The position numbers were made by a program, and so were the translations under genes. Shown here piece after piece: positions 2,556-32,000 of a stretch of 32,000 nt of DNA; position 1 is the stretch's first letter, and every line of letters begins with the position of its first letter. Source of the stretch: Patescibacteria group bacterium (GTDB lineage Bacteria; Patescibacteriota; Patescibacteriia; 2-01-FULL-39-33); contig JBAZMW010000003.1 of the NCBI GenBank assembly GCA_041649575.1, positions 60,001-92,000 of the forward strand, given 5' to 3'. A model generated the notes under the pieces. The model was not told where the DNA came from. It searched no databases and worked only from the letters and a program-made list of their open reading frames with translations.

Positions 2556-5500
2556 TTATTTTTCTAGATCCTTAACATAAAATTTACCACCTGAAATATC
2601 AAAAAATCTTTCAAAAAATCTGGTTAGTTTATCTAACACATTATCACGCTTCTGTGTTCTTTCGCCAGTTGGAGAAAATCGAGACACGGGTGGCAGTACT
2701 TTTGAAATTGCCGTTCCCGTTGTTGAGACGCCACCGTCCCTAAAAGCGTTCCTTACAAATGCGTACGTAGCGTCGTGATCAAGATTTTCAGTTTTAATAA
2801 TTTTTTCAAGCTCATCAATCTTTTTTTCTTCGACGAATCGTTGCCAATCTTCATCTACAATCGAGTGAACATCAAGCGACGTAATAAATTGATTAATTAG
2901 GTCTTTTTTATTACGCAGCTCAATACTAGAATCAATCGCCTTATTAATATCAATCAAAAGCTCACGATTTTTTATATGGTCTTCATGATATTTCTTAATA
3001 AGTCCTAACACATAATCGATATTTATTTCTACCTGTTTGATAAGCTCCATTTCAAAAACTACGTCGTCGTTAATGTTCTCTTTTTCTTCATCGGCAATCT
3101 TCCTAAACTCGTTATAAAGATCAATGTACATACTATGATAATCTTGCACGTCTCGCTCAGTCAAAATCTCATTACCCGCAAACTCGTCAAACGTGACAAG
3201 AATATTACGTACACGCAAAATCGCTCCATATAATTTAATGAATTCTTTTTGATTTTGTTCGCCTACAATTCTTTCTCCAACGGTAAACTTTTCCGTCAAT
3301 TCTTTTACCAGACTTTCGTATCCACGTATATCCTTATTTTCATATTTATAGCCATAGTAATAATCCTTATAGGCTTTAAGAAGGACTATTCCACTCGCCT
3401 CTTTATCACCAAAGAGTGAGATGGATTCATTTGTTGCTTTTTCTAGATTACGGAAACAAATAATATTTCCAAATGTTTTTACGCTATTTAGAATTCGGTT
3501 CGTTCTTGAATATGCTTGCAATAAACCATGCAAACGTAAATTTTTATCAACCCAAAGAGTATTAAGAGTAGTCGCATCAAATCCAGTTAAAAACATATTG
3601 ACTACAATAAGAATATCAATTTCTCGATTTTTAACTCGCTCACTTACATCTTTATAGTAATTTTGGAACTTGTCAGAAGATGTATCATAAGAGGTTCCAA
3701 ACATTGCGTTATAATCTATAATTGCACTATCTAAAAAATCTCTTGAGCTAGCGTCAAGCTCGCTTGTATCCTCAGAGTTTTCATCAATCATTCCATCTGC
3801 ATCTTCATCGTTCACTCCAAAACTATAGATAGTGGCTATCTTGAGACGCTTATCACTGGGTACCTCGGCTAACTGTTTTTTAAATTCAGCATAATATTTC
3901 TTTGCCACATCAATAGAGGAAACGGCAAAGATTGAGTTAAATCCTGCTAGCCTCCGGTCTTTAAGTTTATAGAAACTATTACGTTTTGTTTTTTGATCAA
4001 AATGATCACAAATATATCGAACAATATTCCCTATACGTTCCGGTGCGGCAAGAACTGCCTCACGATCGATATCGCTCACTTTTTTATCTTCAATATTTTC
4101 GGCTTCACGGACAGTAGATACATAGTCCACTTTGAAAGGCAAAACATTCCTATCTGCGATTGCGTCAACAATCGTGTAAGTATGTAATTTATCACCAAAA
4201 GCCTGTTCGGTTGTTTTCAAATCAGGGCGACCACCAGAAGAAGCATTTACGGCAAAAATTGGAGTGCCAGTGAACCCAAAAATGTGGTAATTATTAAATG
4301 CTTTTATAATCGCCGCATGCATGTCGCCAAATTGGGAACGGTGACATTCATCAAAAATCAATACAACGTGGCCGTCAAAAATAGTATGTTCTCCATTACG
4401 ACTAATAAATCGATCCAATTTTTGAATAGTAGTAATAATGATACGTGTATTTGGGTTTTCAAGTTGTTTTTTAAGAACAGAGGTACTCGTGTTACTGTTT
4501 GCGGCACCTTTCTCAAACTTGTCATATTCACGCATAGTCTGATAATCCAAATCTTTACGATCAACAACGAACAAAACTTTGTCTATATAAGATACTTTGC
4601 TTATGAGCTGCGCCGTTTTAAAACTCGTCAGGGTTTTCCCCGATCCTGTTGTGTGCCAAATATATCCACCCGCTTCAACCGTGCCAAGCTTTTTATAGTT
4701 TGTACTTACTTCGATTCGACTCAAAATTCTTTCCGTAGCTACTATTTGATATGGCCGCATCACAAGGAGTAAGCGGTCGGTCGTAAATACACAATACTTA
4801 GTCAGAATATTCAAAAGCGTATGCTTTGCGAAAAAGGTCTTCGCAAAATCCATAAGATCAGTAATGGGACGATTTGTTGCATCTGCCCACCAGCTGGTAA
4901 ATTCAAAACTGTTGCTTGTTCTTTTACCTTTTTTTAATCCGCCCTCGTTTGCTTCTTTAATATGTTCAGAGCGAGTTGTATTGCTGTAGTATTTAGTATG
5001 TGTTCCATTTGAAATAACAAACAGCTGTACATATTCAAAAAGACCAGAAGAAGCCCAAAAACTTTCTTTCTGGTAACGATTAATCTGATTAAAAGCCTCT
5101 TGAATCGCGACACCGCGACGTTTAAGTTCTATGTGAACAATTGGCAAACCATTTACAAGCACCGTTACGTCGTACCGGTTAGCACGCTTACCATTCTCAG
5201 TCGCATATTGATTTATAACTTGAAGATAATTGTCATGAATATTATCTTTTTTTATAAGATAAATATTCTTTGTTGACCCATCGTCACGAGTCAAATTCTT
5301 TACATGATCTTCTTGAACTGTAGCCGTCTTTTCTTCAATACTTTGATTTGGATTAGCAAGTTCACTCGCAAAAAAATGTTCCCATTCATTGTCAGTAAAA
5401 ATAAATCCATTAAGTTTTTCTAATTGTTTGCGTAAGTTGAGAATGAGATCATTTTCTGAAGTAATCGCAATGTATTCATAAGCCTGAGTTTCTAATTGTT

Positions 5501-26502: not shown

Positions 26503-27957
26503 TTAATCCGCCATTTCGGTTTGCTCGCCAAACAAATCAATTTTTTCTTTTTTAGCTTTGGCAATCACGCTATCGGCGATTTGGATATTAGCATCGCGCA
26601 GAGCCTTCTGGCTGGTAAAATTGGGCGCGTCCATCATCAGGTCGCGGCTATCACCGGTTTTGGGAAAAACAATCACTTCACGGATATTTGGTTCGTTCTG
26701 CAAAATAGCCACAATCCTATCAATGCCGGCGGCAATGCCTCCATGAGGCGGCGCGCCATACTCAAATGCTTCCAGCATATGACCAAAACGCGCCTTAATT
26801 TCTTGTTCACCCACACCCAATAGTTCAAAAACTTTTTTCTGAATATCGCGCCGATGAATTCTGATAGAGCCGCCATAAATTTCAAACCCGTTTAACACCA
26901 AATCATAACCATAGGCCCTCCATTTTTGCGGCTCCTCTGGATATTTTTTCATATCTTCCAGATTTGGCATGGTAAAAGGATGGTGACTGGCCACTAATTT
27001 TTTTTCAGTTTTGGAATATTTGAACATCAGAGGGTCTATCAGCCACATAAAAGCCAGTTCACTAGGATCGTGTTTGTCAACTCTTAGATCCGGCTTATCG
27101 GTGCCGTATTTTTCCATACATTCTTCGTAAGTCAGGCGCGGAAATGGCTGCGCTGAGATATTCTTTTCCGGATAAAGCGTTTCTACTAACTTAATCATCA
27201 TGGGCTCAATCAGATTAAAAACGTCTTCCTGTTCGATAAAGCTCATTTCCACGTCCAGTTGAGTGAATTCGGCTTGCCGGTCGCCTCTGGTATCTTCGTC
27301 CCTAAAACACCTGGCGATTTGAAAATATTTTTCCGCACCGGCCACCATTAAGAGTTGCTTGAACTGCTGGGGCGACTGTGGCAAGACATAAAATTTGCCC
27401 GGCCAAAGCCTAGAAGGCACTATAAATTCTCTGGCCCCTTCCGGCGTGCCTTTGGTAAGAACCGGCGTTTCGATATCCAGAAATCCCAAATCCGTCAAAT
27501 AATCCCTGATAAACTTCACCACTTTGGAGCGCATAACCATGTTTTTGGTCATCCGCTGGGTGCGTAAATCAAGATAACGGTATTTGAGACGGGTTTCTTC
27601 GTTTACCTCGGCCGTGTTCTGGTCGATGGCAAAAGGCGGCGTCTTGGCTTCGTTTAAAATTTCAAGTTTGGTCACCAATAGCTCCACCGAGCCGGTGGCA
27701 ATTTTATCATTAATCATATTGGCCGGACGCTCATTGACAGTGCCGACAATGGCCACCACATACTCACTGCGCAGTTTCTCGGCCAAAGCGTGCGTTTCCT
27801 TGTTCGAGGGAATAAACACCACCTGCAAAATGCCGCTACGATCACGGACATCAATAAAAATCAATTTGCCATGATCGCGACGAGTGTGTACCCAACCCAT
27901 GATTTTCACCTCCTGACCTATCTTGTTTGTCACCTCCAAAATCGGAGTTCTTTGCAT
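26503..27957 (-). CDS. aspS: Aspartyl-tRNA synthetase (bacterial type, lacking the large insertion domain)
   Basis: OB-fold N-terminus, motif 2 FRDEDTRGDRQAEFTQLDVEMSF, motif 3 GGIAAGIDRIVAIL. Only about 30 aa separate DKPDLR and HHPFT. Confidence 0.9.
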   Translation of the reverse strand: MQRTPILEVTNKIGQEVKIMGWVHTRRDHGKLIFIDVRDRSGILQVVFIPSNKETHALAEKLRSEYVVAIVGTVNERPANMINDKIATGSVELLVTKLEILNEAKTPPFAIDQNTAEVNEETRLKYRYLDLRTQRMTKNMVMRSKVVKFIRDYLTDLGFLDIETPVLTKGTPEGAREFIVPSRLWPGKFYVLPQSPQQFKQLLMVAGAEKYFQIARCFRDEDTRGDRQAEFTQLDVEMSFIEQEDVFNLIEPMMIKLVETLYPEKNISAQPFPRLTYEECMEKYGTDKPDLRVDKHDPSELAFMWLIDPLMFKYSKTEKKLVASHHPFTMPNLEDMKKYPEEPQKWRAYGYDLVLNGFEIYGGSIRIHRRDIQKKVFELLGVGEQEIKARFGHMLEAFEYGAPPHGGIAAGIDRIVAILQNEPNIREVIVFPKTGDSRDLMMDAPNFTSQKALRDANIQIADSVIAKAKKEKIDLFGEQTEMAD

Positions 27958-28187
27958 AGACTAAAAAAGAAAATTTGTTAAAATTTGTTAAATTAATTAT
28001 AACAAAAATCGATTTTTTGTTCAATGAAAAAAAGCCACAAATTACCAATGAATCGCGACTTTAAAAATTCTTACCCCAAAAACATAAAAATTCTTAGTTA
28101 TTATGACTTTAAATTTGTTTAATATTTTAATTTTTAATTTTTTAATTTGTTTTTTATTTAAATTTAGCCAAAATAAATAACTAACCA

Positions 28188-28216
28188 TTGACACTAATTT
28201 TCAAAAATGATAGAAT
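28188..28216 (+). promoter_or_regulatory. Near-consensus promoter of G+C-rich cassette 3
   Basis: TTGACA (28188-28193), a 17-nt spacer, then TAGAAT (28211-28216). Confidence 0.55.
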
Positions 28217-28220
28217 TTTT

Positions 28221-28622
28221 TATTGAGCGGCACAGTGCTGACTCAAAACCTCGAACATTACAAACAAGAGCGGAGGACAAATCCGTGTATATAAGGAACA
28301 TAGTTCCCGGACAGTTTGTTTAGTTCTTCTCCCAAGAAGACCCGCACGATGCGCGTAATGGCAAGAGACATCGCGTTGACAGCGTTGACGTGAGAGAGAG
28401 CACTGTGACGCTGGACGTCTCCGAAGATGACGGCTACACGACTGATTTTGAGATAGTGGATTCTGTTAGTTGCTGGAGCCAGCCGGTAGAATTGTGCAGT
28501 TTCTAGTGCAGGAAGAGAAGGCTTGTGAGCGGCGCCGATCCTGGACGCGTCATAGCTTTCGTCCCCGAACCGCCAGCCACGGCCCCGTCCGTACCGGCCA
28601 AACCATAGAAAGGGCGCGACCA
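28221..28622 (+). other. ORF-poor G+C-rich transcribed leader (candidate structured RNA or decayed gene)
   Basis: It lies downstream of a strong promoter. All three + frames carry stops. It starts with a leader hairpin shared with cassette 4. The only long ORF is antisense and has neither an ATG nor an RBS. Confidence 0.3.
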
Positions 28623-28961
28623 ATGAGATCAAGAAACGCGGTAGCACTGAAAGCGGGCCAGTTCTTGCTTTTTTCCCGAAGAATCGCTTCCGGGAAAAAG
28701 GTCATGGTAATGGGGCGTGTCAAAGAGATAAGCCCCAAAGGCGACCGTAAGCTGGACTACATCGACCTGGAACTGATGGACGAAGAAAGCCAGATCTGGC
28801 CGGACCACCGTGATTGCCATGACGGCGGCAGAGCAGCGACGCTCTCCCGGCTCCAAGAGCTCTACGGACCAGCGAGAATCACTACGCCCGAAGAAGCCGA
28901 GAGCTTCCAGATGAAAGTGCTGGCGAATCGCGTCGTTGCTATTGTCCGCTTCTTCTGGTGA
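28623..28961 (+). CDS. Hypothetical protein (113 aa from ATG 28623; the track's TTG start at 28470 is possible)
   Basis: Open frame in G+C-rich DNA with a weak GAAAGGG RBS 8 nt upstream of the ATG. No recognisable domain. Confidence 0.4.
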   Translation: MRSRNAVALKAGQFLLFSRRIASGKKVMVMGRVKEISPKGDRKLDYIDLELMDEESQIWPDHRDCHDGGRAATLSRLQELYGPARITTPEEAESFQMKVLANRVVAIVRFFW

Positions 28962-29031
28962 CAACGCTGGAGGCGACGCCACAACCGTTGATGCTCTGCC
29001 ATTGCCGCCAGGAGGAAACATGCACATAACA

Positions 29032-29074
29032 CACCCGAGGTTGCGCACGCGCGCGACCCCGGGGTGATTTTTTT
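29032..29074 (+). terminator. Possible terminator ending cassette 3
   Basis: CACCC...GGGTG pairing around a G+C-rich core (gcgcacgcgcgcgaccccgggg), followed by a run of 7 T. Confidence 0.35.
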
Positions 29075-29086
29075 ATAACAAAATTT

Positions 29087-29647
29087 CTAAAACAATCTTT
29101 CTACAAAACCGCAACCGCGAGCCGGCTTTTCTGACACCACCTCTATCAGCCGCTTGAGCTCAAAAAAAAGTTGTTTTTGGGTTTGGGCCTGAATTTTCGG
29201 CCGGTAACCCAAGTGCCTCAATAATTCGAAAAGATATTTGTTTAAAGATAATAAATTCTTGGTTTTTTCTTTTTCTTCGCTTAGAGAAAATAAGAATTTC
29301 TCAATAATTTCAAACAAAAAACCGTCAGCCGCCTCATGAATTATCAAACTATCAATCGCCGCCAAAAAATAATTGGCGATAACTATCTTATCCAGATCGG
29401 CTTTAATGGCCGAGTAATTTTTGGCAATGCCGGCGGCGGCCAGACGCTTTGACAGCTGGCCCTCGGCCAGCATTAAATCGCAAATCAAAAACGGCTCCAA
29501 ATGCGAATTGAGCTTGGAAGTGATTTTTTTGGCGCCCTTGGCAATGGCCGTCACCTTGCCAAATAAGCGGGTGTAGAGCGTGTACTGGCAATCATAGTCG
29601 CCGAGAGCGCATTTTTTGAGGACAATGGCTTGAGTGAGATAAGTCAT
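29087..29647 (-). CDS. recO: DNA repair protein RecO (short form)
   Basis: The N-terminal OB-fold pattern (QAIVLKKCALGDYDCQYTLYTRLFGKVTAIAKGAKKITSKLNSHLEPF) is typical of RecO. Confidence 0.7.
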   Translation of the reverse strand: MTYLTQAIVLKKCALGDYDCQYTLYTRLFGKVTAIAKGAKKITSKLNSHLEPFLICDLMLAEGQLSKRLAAAGIAKNYSAIKADLDKIVIANYFLAAIDSLIIHEAADGFLFEIIEKFLFSLSEEKEKTKNLLSLNKYLFELLRHLGYRPKIQAQTQKQLFFELKRLIEVVSEKPARGCGFVERLF

Positions 29648-29698
29648 CTTTGAACTAAAGATTTAAAACTAAAAAGGTACAAGAAAAAACAAAGCGGC

Positions 29699-30079
29699 TT
29701 ACTTGCTATCCAAATAACCCTGTAAGGTGAGCATAGCGGCCACATCATCGTCATGGCGGCCGGGCTTTAGCCTTTGTGCCTCCTTGCTGGTAAACCTCTC
29801 ATCATAAAAAACTAATTTTATTTTTAATTCTTGGGCCAAGCGCTCGCCGAAGTCTTTTGTCTTAAAGGTTTGCGGGGATTTTTGGGATTTTTTATTAAGC
29901 GGCAGACCGACAACCACTAGCTGTATTTTTTCCTTGTTAATTATTTCTCTAACTTCCAAGGCCAACCCATTAAAACCAGAATTTTTCAAAATTCCGTACG
30001 GCAAAGCCAGGCCGCTCTCTGTGTCGGCAATAGCCAAACCGATTTTTACTTCACCATAGTCGATGCCAAGTAGTTTCAT
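29699..30079 (-). CDS. ruvX: Holliday junction resolvase-like protein RuvX/YqgF
   Basis: MKLLGIDYGEVKIGLAIAD N-terminus; 126 aa. Confidence 0.85.
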   Translation of the reverse strand: MKLLGIDYGEVKIGLAIADTESGLALPYGILKNSGFNGLALEVREIINKEKIQLVVVGLPLNKKSQKSPQTFKTKDFGERLAQELKIKLVFYDERFTSKEAQRLKPGRHDDDVAAMLTLQGYLDSK

Positions 30080-30091
30080 GTCTGTTTACAG

Positions 30092-30176
30092 TGTCATTGC
30101 GAGGAGCGAAGCGATGTGGCAATCCCGTGGGATCCCCACGTCGCCCGGCCGAATGGCCGGACTCCTCGGGATGACA
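30092..30176. repeat. G+C-rich palindromic MITE/REP-like element, copy B
   Basis: Terminal inverted repeat tgtcattgcgaggag / ctcctcgggatgaca. The core is gcaatcccgtgggatccccacg plus the hairpin ccggccgaatggccgg. It fills essentially the whole map-ruvX spacer. Confidence 0.75.
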
Positions 30177-30177
30177 A

Positions 30178-30948
30178 TTAAATAGTAGTTATAATCTCTC
30201 CTCCCCTTTCTGTCACCGCGATCGTATGCTCAAAATGCGCCGAGAGCGAATTGTCTCTAGTGGCCACCGTCCAGCCGTCGTCCAAAGTTTCTACCGGCCA
30301 GTCGCCAAAATTAACCATTGGCTCTAGAGCCAAAGTCATACCAACCGCCAGCTTGATGTCGGCAAACCTCTTGTCCACATAATTGGGAATTTGCGGATCT
30401 TCGTGGGGAGAAAAACCGACTCCATGGCCGCACAATTGCCGCACAACACTAAAACCATTTTTTTCAACGTAATCTTGAATGGCGCGGGAAATGTCCGTCA
30501 ATTTATTGCCAGCTTTGGCCTGCCTAATGCCTTTAGACAAAGATTCTTCCGTGACGGAAATAAGTTTTCGGATTTGCCGGCCAACACTACCAACGGCGAC
30601 TGTCTTGGCCATGTCGGTAAAAAGCCCGCGATACTCCAGGCCGCAATCAATACCAACGATGTCGCCGCTTTTAATAATCCTATTGGGAACCGGCAGGCCA
30701 TGCACCACTTCGTTATTTAACGAAAGGCAAAGAGCCGAGGGATAGGCATGCTCGGCCCAAGAAGCCCGATAACCCTTAAAACTTGGCTTGCCGCCGGCTT
30801 TTTTTATTAATTCTTCGGCATAAACACTCAATTCTTCGGTGCCAACGCCGGGTTTTATTTTTTTTATTACCAAAGCCAAAACCTGGGCGAGAATTTTCCC
30901 GCCCTGACGCATGGTGGCTATTTGTTGTTTATTTTTTAATTTAACCAT
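30178..30948 (-). CDS. map: Type I methionine aminopeptidase
   Basis: Metal-ligand motifs GDIVGIDCG, GHGVG, LALEPM and EHTIAVT. Confidence 0.95.
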   Translation of the reverse strand: MVKLKNKQQIATMRQGGKILAQVLALVIKKIKPGVGTEELSVYAEELIKKAGGKPSFKGYRASWAEHAYPSALCLSLNNEVVHGLPVPNRIIKSGDIVGIDCGLEYRGLFTDMAKTVAVGSVGRQIRKLISVTEESLSKGIRQAKAGNKLTDISRAIQDYVEKNGFSVVRQLCGHGVGFSPHEDPQIPNYVDKRFADIKLAVGMTLALEPMVNFGDWPVETLDDGWTVATRDNSLSAHFEHTIAVTERGGEIITTI

Positions 30949-31033
30949 GACTTAATATTAACAAAAAAAGAATAAAATCACAAAAAGATAAACTTATTTT
31001 TGCCTAAATTTAAACAAAAAATAACATTATTTA

Positions 31034-31062
31034 TTGACATTTAATTTTGGATATGATATAAT
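31034..31062 (+). promoter_or_regulatory. Consensus promoter of G+C-rich cassette 4
   Basis: TTGACA (31034-31039), a 17-nt spacer, then TATAAT (31057-31062). Confidence 0.6.
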
Positions 31063-31127
31063 TATATATTGGGTCGGCATCGCGCTGACTCGAGATTTTG
31101 GACATTTTCAACCAAGGAGAAAGAGAA

Positions 31128-31481
31128 ATGAAACGATTTTTCAGCTTTTTGGAGCGGCTGTTCGCCGGCCTGAGTGCGATAGCTCTACTGCTCGGCCTGA
31201 TGTTTGTGGCCGGCATCTGTCTATCGCTGCCCTGGTACGGCTGGATTGCCAGCTTCCTGGCCGGCATCTTCACCGCAGGGATAAGAGTGATCCGCTGGCC
31301 GATCAAAATCGCCTTGCTGGTAATCTGGGGGCCGATGATCATGGCTTTCGGCTACTACATCGTCTTCCCGATGGTCGGGCCGGTGAGTATCGTGCAGGGA
31401 GCGATCTGCTGGGTGATATTCATCACGGCGTTTGTGATGGCTCGCTGCGCCGCCGGCATCAAGGACATGCCAACGGACTGA
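31128..31481 (+). CDS. Small polytopic membrane protein (hypothetical)
   Basis: AAGGAG lies 8 nt upstream of ATG 31128. The 117-aa product has about four hydrophobic helices (LSAIALLLGLMFVAGICL, WIASFLAGIFTAGI, IALLVIWGPMIMAFGYYIVF, AICWVIFITAFVMA). Confidence 0.7.
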   Translation: MKRFFSFLERLFAGLSAIALLLGLMFVAGICLSLPWYGWIASFLAGIFTAGIRVIRWPIKIALLVIWGPMIMAFGYYIVFPMVGPVSIVQGAICWVIFITAFVMARCAAGIKDMPTD

Positions 31482-31538: not shown

Positions 31539-32000
31539 ATGATAGAACCTGTTGGTGTTATATTGTGCGGTATAGTGATCTTGGTCCTTGGGGTTGGGTG
31601 GAGTCTAATCTCAAGGAAGAGTCTGGAATTCTTCAGTTGCGTGACACTGGTGGTGCTGGCTGTCGGCCTGTACTTGTCAGTGTCCGATCACCAAATCCCC
31701 AAGACGTCATGGGGAGCCACCACGCCGGGCGCGATGATGCCCTACGACCAGAAACAAGCCACCGACGCGTTCGACGCATCGGCGAAGCAGGCACAAGGAG
31801 CTACAGGGTGTAGCGCCGGAGCAGAGCAAAGGACCGCTGTGACCGCACTGACCCGCGACGAAGAGACGGCGCTGGCCAGACAACGGAACGCAGCGGCCGC
31901 CCAAGAAAGCGGTGAAACAACCGCCGACAAGTGGCCGATGAAGGAGCTAGCCATCACTCCGCTGAGCAAGTGGTTTAACCAAAGGGAAAGCAAGGGGGGC
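31539..32000 (+). CDS. Membrane-anchored hypothetical protein, 3' end beyond the window (absent from the ORF track because it has no stop)
   Basis: AAGGAG RBS, ATG at 31539, and 154 codons open to the window edge. Two N-terminal hydrophobic helices (VGVILCGIVILVLGVGW, FFSCVTLVVLAVGLYL) are followed by an Ala/Gln/Thr-rich soluble region. Confidence 0.6.
   Translation, partial: MIEPVGVILCGIVILVLGVGWSLISRKSLEFFSCVTLVVLAVGLYLSVSDHQIPKTSWGATTPGAMMPYDQKQATDAFDASAKQAQGATGCSAGAEQRTAVTALTRDEETALARQRNAAAAQESGETTADKWPMKELAITPLSKWFNQRESKGG

Follow-up and report, generated by a model that had tools for sequence, protein, structure and literature searches.

Cassettes 3 and 4 of a Patescibacteria genome each place a hairpin at what would be the very start of their transcript. 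Is this hairpin maintained by selection as an RNA structure and, if so, what is it for? The window examined here, i.e., the whole 32,000 nt stretch that was analysed (G000:C3:60001-92000), comes from a host genome (G000) of 920 kb with 44% GC and a completeness of 98%. The original prediction, made from the letters of the window, was that the two cassettes share a paralogous promoter and leader hairpin, selected as RNA rather than as a DNA operator and placed before unrelated genes as a portable expression module.

The housekeeping genes around the cassettes are minus-strand genes throughout: that of a class II aminoacyl-tRNA synthetase (26503–27957), recO (29087–29647), ruvX (29699–30079), map (30178–30948) and, past the window end, adk and secY. 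Both cassettes are on the plus strand. Cassette 3 (28188–29078, 0.9 kb) is inserted between the synthetase gene and recO, and cassette 4, which runs from 31034 past the window end to L001:4747 (contig position 92747; 1.7 kb), between map and adk. The GC content of the two units is 55–62%, against 44% for their neighbours.

Each unit begins with a strong promoter. In cassette 3 this is TTGACA (28188–28193), a 17 nt spacer and a TG-extended TAGAAT (28211–28216), with 11 of 12 consensus matches; in cassette 4 it is TTGACA (31034–31039), again 17 nt, and a TG-extended TATAAT (31057–31062), matching at 12 of 12 positions. From the promoter geometry, transcription is predicted to start at an A located 6 nt after the −10 box (28222 and 31068, respectively), the first base of an A-T-T that is invariant in all aligned leaders. 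Palindromic elements are found 20 nt before each −35 box (TTAAATTTAG, 28158–28167, plus strand; CTAAATTTAA, 31004–31013, plus strand). Similar elements, resembling CTAAATTTAG with at most one mismatch, occur 13–74 nt upstream of the −35 box at 28 strong promoter-like sites of the genome, i.e., cassettes 3 and 4 and 26 others, including the rRNA promoter (L058), and are also present upstream of the related cassettes in genomes G010 and G023. This could be an UP-like element or the site of a global regulator.

Downstream of its leader, cassette 3 has a ribosome binding site (RBS; GGAGG, 28272–28276) followed by a 12-codon GTG mini-ORF (28285–28323); this starting segment (28272–28323) yielded nothing homologous to the gene that comes first in cassette 4. 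Further on is an ORF of uncertain coding status (P0001, 112 aa, 28623–28961), which had no family match, and the unit closes with an intrinsic terminator, a GC hairpin followed by seven T residues (29034–29078; −26.9 kcal/mol, z = −4.9). The RBS of cassette 4 (AAGGAG, from 31114) precedes P0002 (31128–31481), which encodes a multi-pass membrane protein of 117 aa, and a gene for a membrane-anchored protein of 205 aa with a conserved C-terminal domain (from 31539 through the window end at 32000 to L001:4156). Two more small genes follow, and then a terminator of the same kind (L001:4703–4747; GC hairpin and T7; −31.0 kcal/mol, z = −6.2). The 280 nt AT-rich spacer between this terminator and adk contains two further GC hairpins (CCGCCTTCCGGGCGG and CCCCGCCTGTAAGGCGGGG, L001:4860–4935), which are probably terminators of the adk operon, no longer contiguous with map.

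Phage morons of the HK97/HK022 type are autonomous promoter–gene–terminator units found between conserved genes. Cassettes 3 and 4 resemble them in that each encloses its cargo between its own promoter and its own intrinsic terminator, has a deviating GC content, sits between conserved genes and carries variable cargo within conserved ends. Unlike morons, they do not lie in a phage or prophage genome (their neighbours are the synthetase gene, recO, ruvX, map, adk and secY) but in chromosomal housekeeping operons, antisense to them, and a search of viral contigs gave no match for the P0002 family.

The two leaders are built alike: TTGACA-N17-TAnAAT, 5 nt, the invariant A-U-U, a stem-loop of 10 bp and, 6 nt on, a G(G/A)ACAUU box. 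All of the letters that had been quoted for the two copies were found in place, with hairpin cores at 28225–28244 (cassette 3) and 31071–31091 (cassette 4). RNAfold adds two U-A/U-G pairs to each core, and the full structures, also backed by covariation in homologues, are UUGAGCGGCA, loop CAG and UGCUG(A)CUCAA in cassette 3 (28223–28246, with A28241 bulged), and UUGGGUCGGC, loop AUCGC and GCUGACUCGA in cassette 4 (31069–31093). In the alignment, the box reads GAACAUU in cassette 3 (28253–28259) and GGACAUU in cassette 4 (31100–31106). The 58 nt leader of cassette 3 folds at −14.6 kcal/mol, a stability reached by 1 of 200 shuffles, and that of cassette 4 at −16.2 kcal/mol, reached by 11 of 200. 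The last stem positions are 28246 and 31093, and the RBSs begin at 28272 and 31114. With 26–28 nt between stem and RBS, the RBS is left unsequestered, so masking of translation by the stem is unlikely.

Rfam 15, searched at the gathering score or at E values up to 10, returned only four tRNAs in the window and nothing credible within 27900–31300. The CTGACT of the 3′ arm was considered as the −35 box of a second promoter, and by eye no usable −10 box was seen at 16–18 nt. In cassette 3, the hairpin region (28226–28244) is 84% complementary over 19 nt to 28394–28412, some 150 nt downstream; this may be due to chance or point to an alternative pairing.

Aligned from the predicted start A through the last base of the box, the leaders of cassettes 3 and 4 agree at 28 of 39 positions, with one gap. 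Among 17,020 pairs of 46 nt stretches taken downstream of promoter-like sites, this pair scores 15 (z = 5.6) and is tied for ranks 3–5, the other pairs at its level being low-complexity AT runs. The combined motif GCTGACTC-N8-14-ACATT occurs in the 920 kb genome only at cassettes 3 and 4. The 'atga' before the −10 box, cited as a further sign of kinship, is indeed common to both, but it is the TG-extended −10 consensus of strong promoters throughout this genome, and the shared promoter letters are therefore uninformative on paralogy. In the same comparison, two other promoter-downstream stretches (G000:C1, near 230064 and near 5350, minus strand) scored 34 of 46 around a shared ...AATGRTTTGATGACCAGAAGGCT..., far above any other pair, which points to another set of paralogous leaders or small RNAs.

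The stems of cassettes 3 and 4 differ by two one-sided changes (G.U to A-U in both cases) and by one deleted base that leaves A28241 bulged; no double compensatory change separates them. The original prediction had argued from pairing-preserving differences between these two copies, which by themselves show no compensatory covariation. Their differences would fit a conserved structure without being diagnostic of it, and taken alone are weak evidence.

A relationship between the two units extends well beyond their leaders. Their terminators are identical at 40 of 45 positions (89% over 45 nt; BLAST E value 2e-11), and both encode the block G(R/C)VI(A/S)FVPEPPAT (VIxFVPEPPAT), with synonymous differences in the DNA. 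A frame of cassette 3 ending in ...GRVIAFVPEPPAT... matches the C-terminus of the 205 aa protein of cassette 4, ...GCVISFVPEPPAT..., a 13 aa block in cassette 3 (28543–28581) being 85% identical to it. The stretch around this block (28507–28608, plus strand), directly preceded by an in-frame TAG (28504–28506) and ending in ...GRVIAFVPEPPATAPSVPAKP*, is what is left of the gene for the C-terminal domain; the in-frame TAG and a deletion argue that the cassette 3 copy is a remnant of a cassette 4 gene. The frame that carries the VIAFVPEPPAT block (within 28390–28608) does not have the family motif RY(I/V)x(I/V)DG. Judged by these features, 28390–28608 is a decayed gene copy within a transcription unit that is apparently still complete. 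The view that the genes behind the two leaders are unrelated is thus right in so far as the cargo partly differs, whereas the terminator and the protein block are common to both. Leader, terminator and protein block taken together identify cassettes 3 and 4, on alignment evidence, as diverged duplicates of one whole cassette.

The family of the 205 aa protein is small, combines an N-terminal membrane helix with a conserved C-terminal domain, and also has members in genomes G010, G009 and G003. A large protein database contained no relatives of the 205 aa protein, and P0002 retrieved only itself. Homologues of P0002 are present in three genomes, G014, G024 and G033, and a metagenome scan with an alignment of P0002 led to three loci, namely those of the same three genomes.

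The combined motif has no third occurrence in the genome itself, and homologous leaders were recovered from its relatives. The cassette of G010, recruited through BLAST of the flanking sequences, is a one-gene unit located, like cassette 4, beside adk, with promoter, hairpin (AGCCUGAC/GUCGGACU), GGACAUU box, RBS and the same terminator tail. The leader of G014 stands ahead of a P0002 homologue (36% identity, E value 5e-8) and was recruited by a structure-blind pattern and, independently, by the homology of its first gene to P0002. Those of G032 and G030 were recruited with a structure-aware covariance model (R1). A refined model (R2), run on 34 genomes of the family, found no further strong member, returning only marginal leaders with either a hairpin or a box. 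The first gene behind the leader belongs to the P0002 family in cassette 4 and G014, to the C-terminal-domain family in G010, and is another gene in G032 and G030. To the extent that the leader precedes different first genes among relatives, the notion of a portable expression module holds in part.

In many leaders of related genomes (L030, L035, L032 and L034, of G028, G007, G014 and G002) an A/C-rich run stands directly before the RBS, e.g., CAACCAAAAAGGAG in G028 and G007. A run of this kind also precedes a housekeeping gene resembling thymidylate kinase, so the 'caacca' of cassette 4 and G010 is a general translation-start context and not specific to cassettes.

Covariation was assessed in an alignment (A6) of five homologous leaders: cassettes 3 and 4, G010, G014 and G032, the last recruited by the structure-aware model. 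Across them 47 of the 49 helix cells are paired (96%), compared with 25–49% in slid controls, and seven of the ten stem pairs have changed on both sides, a count to be read with the caveat that five related sequences are few. None of 500 shuffles matched the covariation score of these five leaders, whose kinship inflates shuffle tests. RNAalifold returned the identical helix and no other. It is therefore pairing rather than sequence that is conserved in these five leaders. The postulated selection on an RNA structure is supported by the extent of pairing, by the two-sided changes and by a better pairing of the sense strand, as well as by the position of the helix, one base past the conserved A and clear of the RBS. 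The evidence for the leader stem comes from the relatives and not from the pair of cassettes alone and, on this comparative ground, selection on RNA pairing has preserved the stem-loop.

The strand comparison also bears on whether the inverted repeat acts as DNA, either as an operator at which a dimeric regulator would sit across the start site, or through an effect of the initial transcribed sequence on promoter escape. The repeat spans +2 to +26, a common position for operators, and an invariant A-T-T lies at the start. Against this, pairing is conserved while the sequence of the half-sites is not, and 9 of the 47 paired cells are G.U, which is not palindromic in DNA. The sense strand pairs at 47 of 49 cells and the antisense strand at 40 of 49, which argues for RNA and not for a DNA palindrome, and a role at the DNA level is very unlikely.

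Could the hairpin simply have been copied along with the cassette, drifting since then without a selected function? Such an origin would fit the one-sided changes and the bulge that separate cassettes 3 and 4, and the partly decayed look of cassette 3, with its in-frame stop in the remnant and a first ORF of only 12 codons. It would also fit the cassettes of G024 and G033, which carry P0002 orthologues behind a similar promoter and a box (GAACAUU and GAACCUU, respectively) but have no local hairpin (0.0 kcal/mol), so the stem is dispensable in some relatives. Shared ancestry alone does not account for seven pairs with double changes across genomes at 96% pairing, nor for G023, whose syntenic cassette (between map and adk, and sharing a homologous terminator) has an unrelated hairpin of 6 bp in the same place. 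It also sits poorly with the enrichment of 5′-proximal hairpins at strong promoters genome-wide: a hairpin of −8 kcal/mol or lower in the first 32 nt is found at 14% of 77 strong promoter-like sites and in 3% of shuffles. Among these 77 sites the hairpin of cassette 4 is the strongest and that of cassette 3 the fifth, and many of the hairpins begin with R-U-U. Drift without function is, on balance, unlikely.

In the leaders of G024, G033 and G014 (L203, L204 and L205) the first 8–11 bases of the transcript (AUUGAUUU, AUCAAUUUG and AUCAAGUUAAU) are complementary to codons 3–8 of the first gene, and both sides of this complementarity vary in sequence among the three. Such complementarity is suggestive of long-range pairing of the 5′ end with the coding region, which could replace the local hairpin.

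The hairpin, kept by compensatory changes in relatives, is most likely an ordinary stabiliser of the mRNA 5′ end, and this is the reading we favour for cassettes 3 and 4, with a probability of roughly 0.55; both the start site and the stabilising effect are deduced rather than measured. Cassettes 3 and 4 are self-contained units, antisense among housekeeping genes, in which a strong sigma-70-type promoter and a leader precede cargo encoding small membrane proteins, with an intrinsic terminator to close the unit. Transcription would begin at the conserved A, 6 nt after the −10 box, and the nascent 5′ end would fold at once into the 10 bp stem-loop, leaving about one base unpaired. The stem-loop would then shield the mRNA from 5′-end-dependent decay, i.e., removal of pyrophosphate followed by the 5′-exonuclease activity of RNase J, and RNase Y. 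Slower decay would raise the output of the cassette units. The G(G/A)ACAUU box is a second, separately conserved element of the leader.

The geometry of the leader and the enzymes of the host are both consistent with protection of the 5′ end. An A-U-U ahead of the stem is invariant in the aligned leaders, its A lies 6 nt past the −10 box and the stem begins one base after that A, so that if this A is the start, a single 5′ base is left unpaired. The host encodes RNase J and RNase Y, whose matches of 470 and 628 bits, respectively, exceed the curated cut-offs, and its 98%-complete genome yielded no RNase E/G; its decay machinery is thus of the Bacillus type. According to a review (PMC3997798), the B. 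subtilis RppH requires two or more unpaired nt at the 5′ end, with a preference for G at position 2, and a paired 5′ end hinders RppH and thereby RNase J. Given their predicted start, the leaders of cassettes 3 and 4 would have about one unpaired nt and a U at position 2.

That a 5′ stem-loop can act as a stabiliser is well documented (Emory 1992; Bouvet and Belasco 1992; for aprE, Hambraeus 2002; all cited in the same review). Like the leaders of E. coli ompA and papA and B. subtilis aprE, those of the cassettes have a stem-loop at the (predicted) 5′ extremity, upstream of and apart from the RBS; structure is conserved rather than sequence, and the host has enzymes of 5′-end-dependent decay (here RNase J and RNase Y). 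They differ in that the start is a predicted one and we infer the effect on half-life, in the single-stranded G(G/A)ACAUU box behind the stem, and in that the element belongs to a few related accessory cassettes within a single family of Patescibacteria.

The box behaves as a constituent of its own. In the family it is kept even where the hairpin is missing (G024 and G033), at a nearly fixed +26 to +34 from the predicted start in hairpin-bearing leaders and in these two alike, and box and hairpin also occur apart: G007 has the box alone, and G014:C1 a hairpin alone. Promoter plus box gave seven matches in 6 of 11 family genomes, where a rough estimate expects about 0.8. Across the class the count was 23 matches in 401 genomes, with about 29 expected by a similarly rough estimate, and since there is no class-wide enrichment, a phylum-wide module is not claimed. 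A GTDB-wide scan for promoter, TT and GRACATT returned at least 120 matches, mostly due to chance (Clostridia and others; starts of coding regions and rRNA leaders), and the two strongest hairpins among the 120 matches listed belong to Patescibacteria.

These properties raise the possibility that hairpin and box together are the recognition site of a lineage-specific RNA-binding protein or ribonuclease, and serve as a regulatory or processing signal rather than a passive stabiliser. The box is more conserved than the sequence of the stem and outlasts the loss of the hairpin, its distance from the predicted start is almost fixed, and its matches behind promoters in the family exceed the expectation. 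Yet the binding protein has no known candidate, the class as a whole has no enrichment, and hairpin and box are separable, as G007 and G014:C1 attest. CsrA was tried as the reader and rejected: no CsrA (PF02599) was found in the 98%-complete genome, and the box of cassette 3 reads GAA instead of GGA. A specific protein site is a minor, if tangible, possibility. Somewhat more doubtful is a broader proposal, in which the 5′ hairpin and G(G/A)ACAUU would form a lineage-specific cis-acting RNA signal, read by some factor, that places the GC-rich accessory cassettes of this Patescibacteria family under a common regime of expression or processing, a 'cassette leader' that moves with shuffled cargo.

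The cryIIIA leader of Bacillus has, close to its 5′ end, a short conserved element (STAB-SD) that pairs with the 3′ end of 16S rRNA and is thought to block 5′-to-3′ decay. The box of cassettes 3 and 4 is likewise a short conserved element near the 5′ end. It differs from STAB-SD in that GGACAUU has no complement in the 16S rRNA of this genome, even with G.U allowed, and pairing of the box with 16S rRNA, be it of the STAB-SD kind or epsilon-like, was rejected.

A variable hairpin and then, still close to the 5′ end, a short single-stranded box that is conserved: this order is also that of boxB–boxA in rRNA operon leaders. The cassette leaders might accordingly be read as an antitermination signal, with a boxB-type hairpin and a boxA-like G(G/A)AC(A/U)UU..CAAC on which NusB/NusE would be loaded. 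NusB is present in the genome, and the boxes of two relatives (G028, UGAACUUUAACAAC; G030, UGGACUUUGAAAAA) are boxA-like when set against the boxA consensus. However, the rRNA leader of the organism itself carries a canonical-looking UUUCUUUGAACAA, which does not match GGACAUU or GAACAUU, and the 98%-complete genome yielded no Rho, removing the main need for antitermination. The units to be transcribed, moreover, measure merely 0.9 and 1.7 kb. The box was rejected as a boxA of the rRNA type, and antitermination is a highly improbable role for the leader.

The feature is real, the original prediction was largely right on its structure, and the element is of a kind to be expected; because the hairpin is an expected kind of device, its general significance is modest. 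In the 98%-complete genome, neither Rho nor RNase E/G nor CsrA was detected; RNase J, RNase Y and NusB were. If the hairpin of cassettes 3 and 4 is indeed a 5′-end stabiliser, strongly expressed accessory units would start with a paired 5′ end against a background of RNase J and RNase Y, with no detectable RNase E or Rho. This would be among the first comparative hints on how the life span of mRNA is controlled in the ultra-small, uncultured Patescibacteria. That entire units were duplicated and diverged, their ends conserved while the cargo changed, bears in turn on how such cassettes spread within these genomes.
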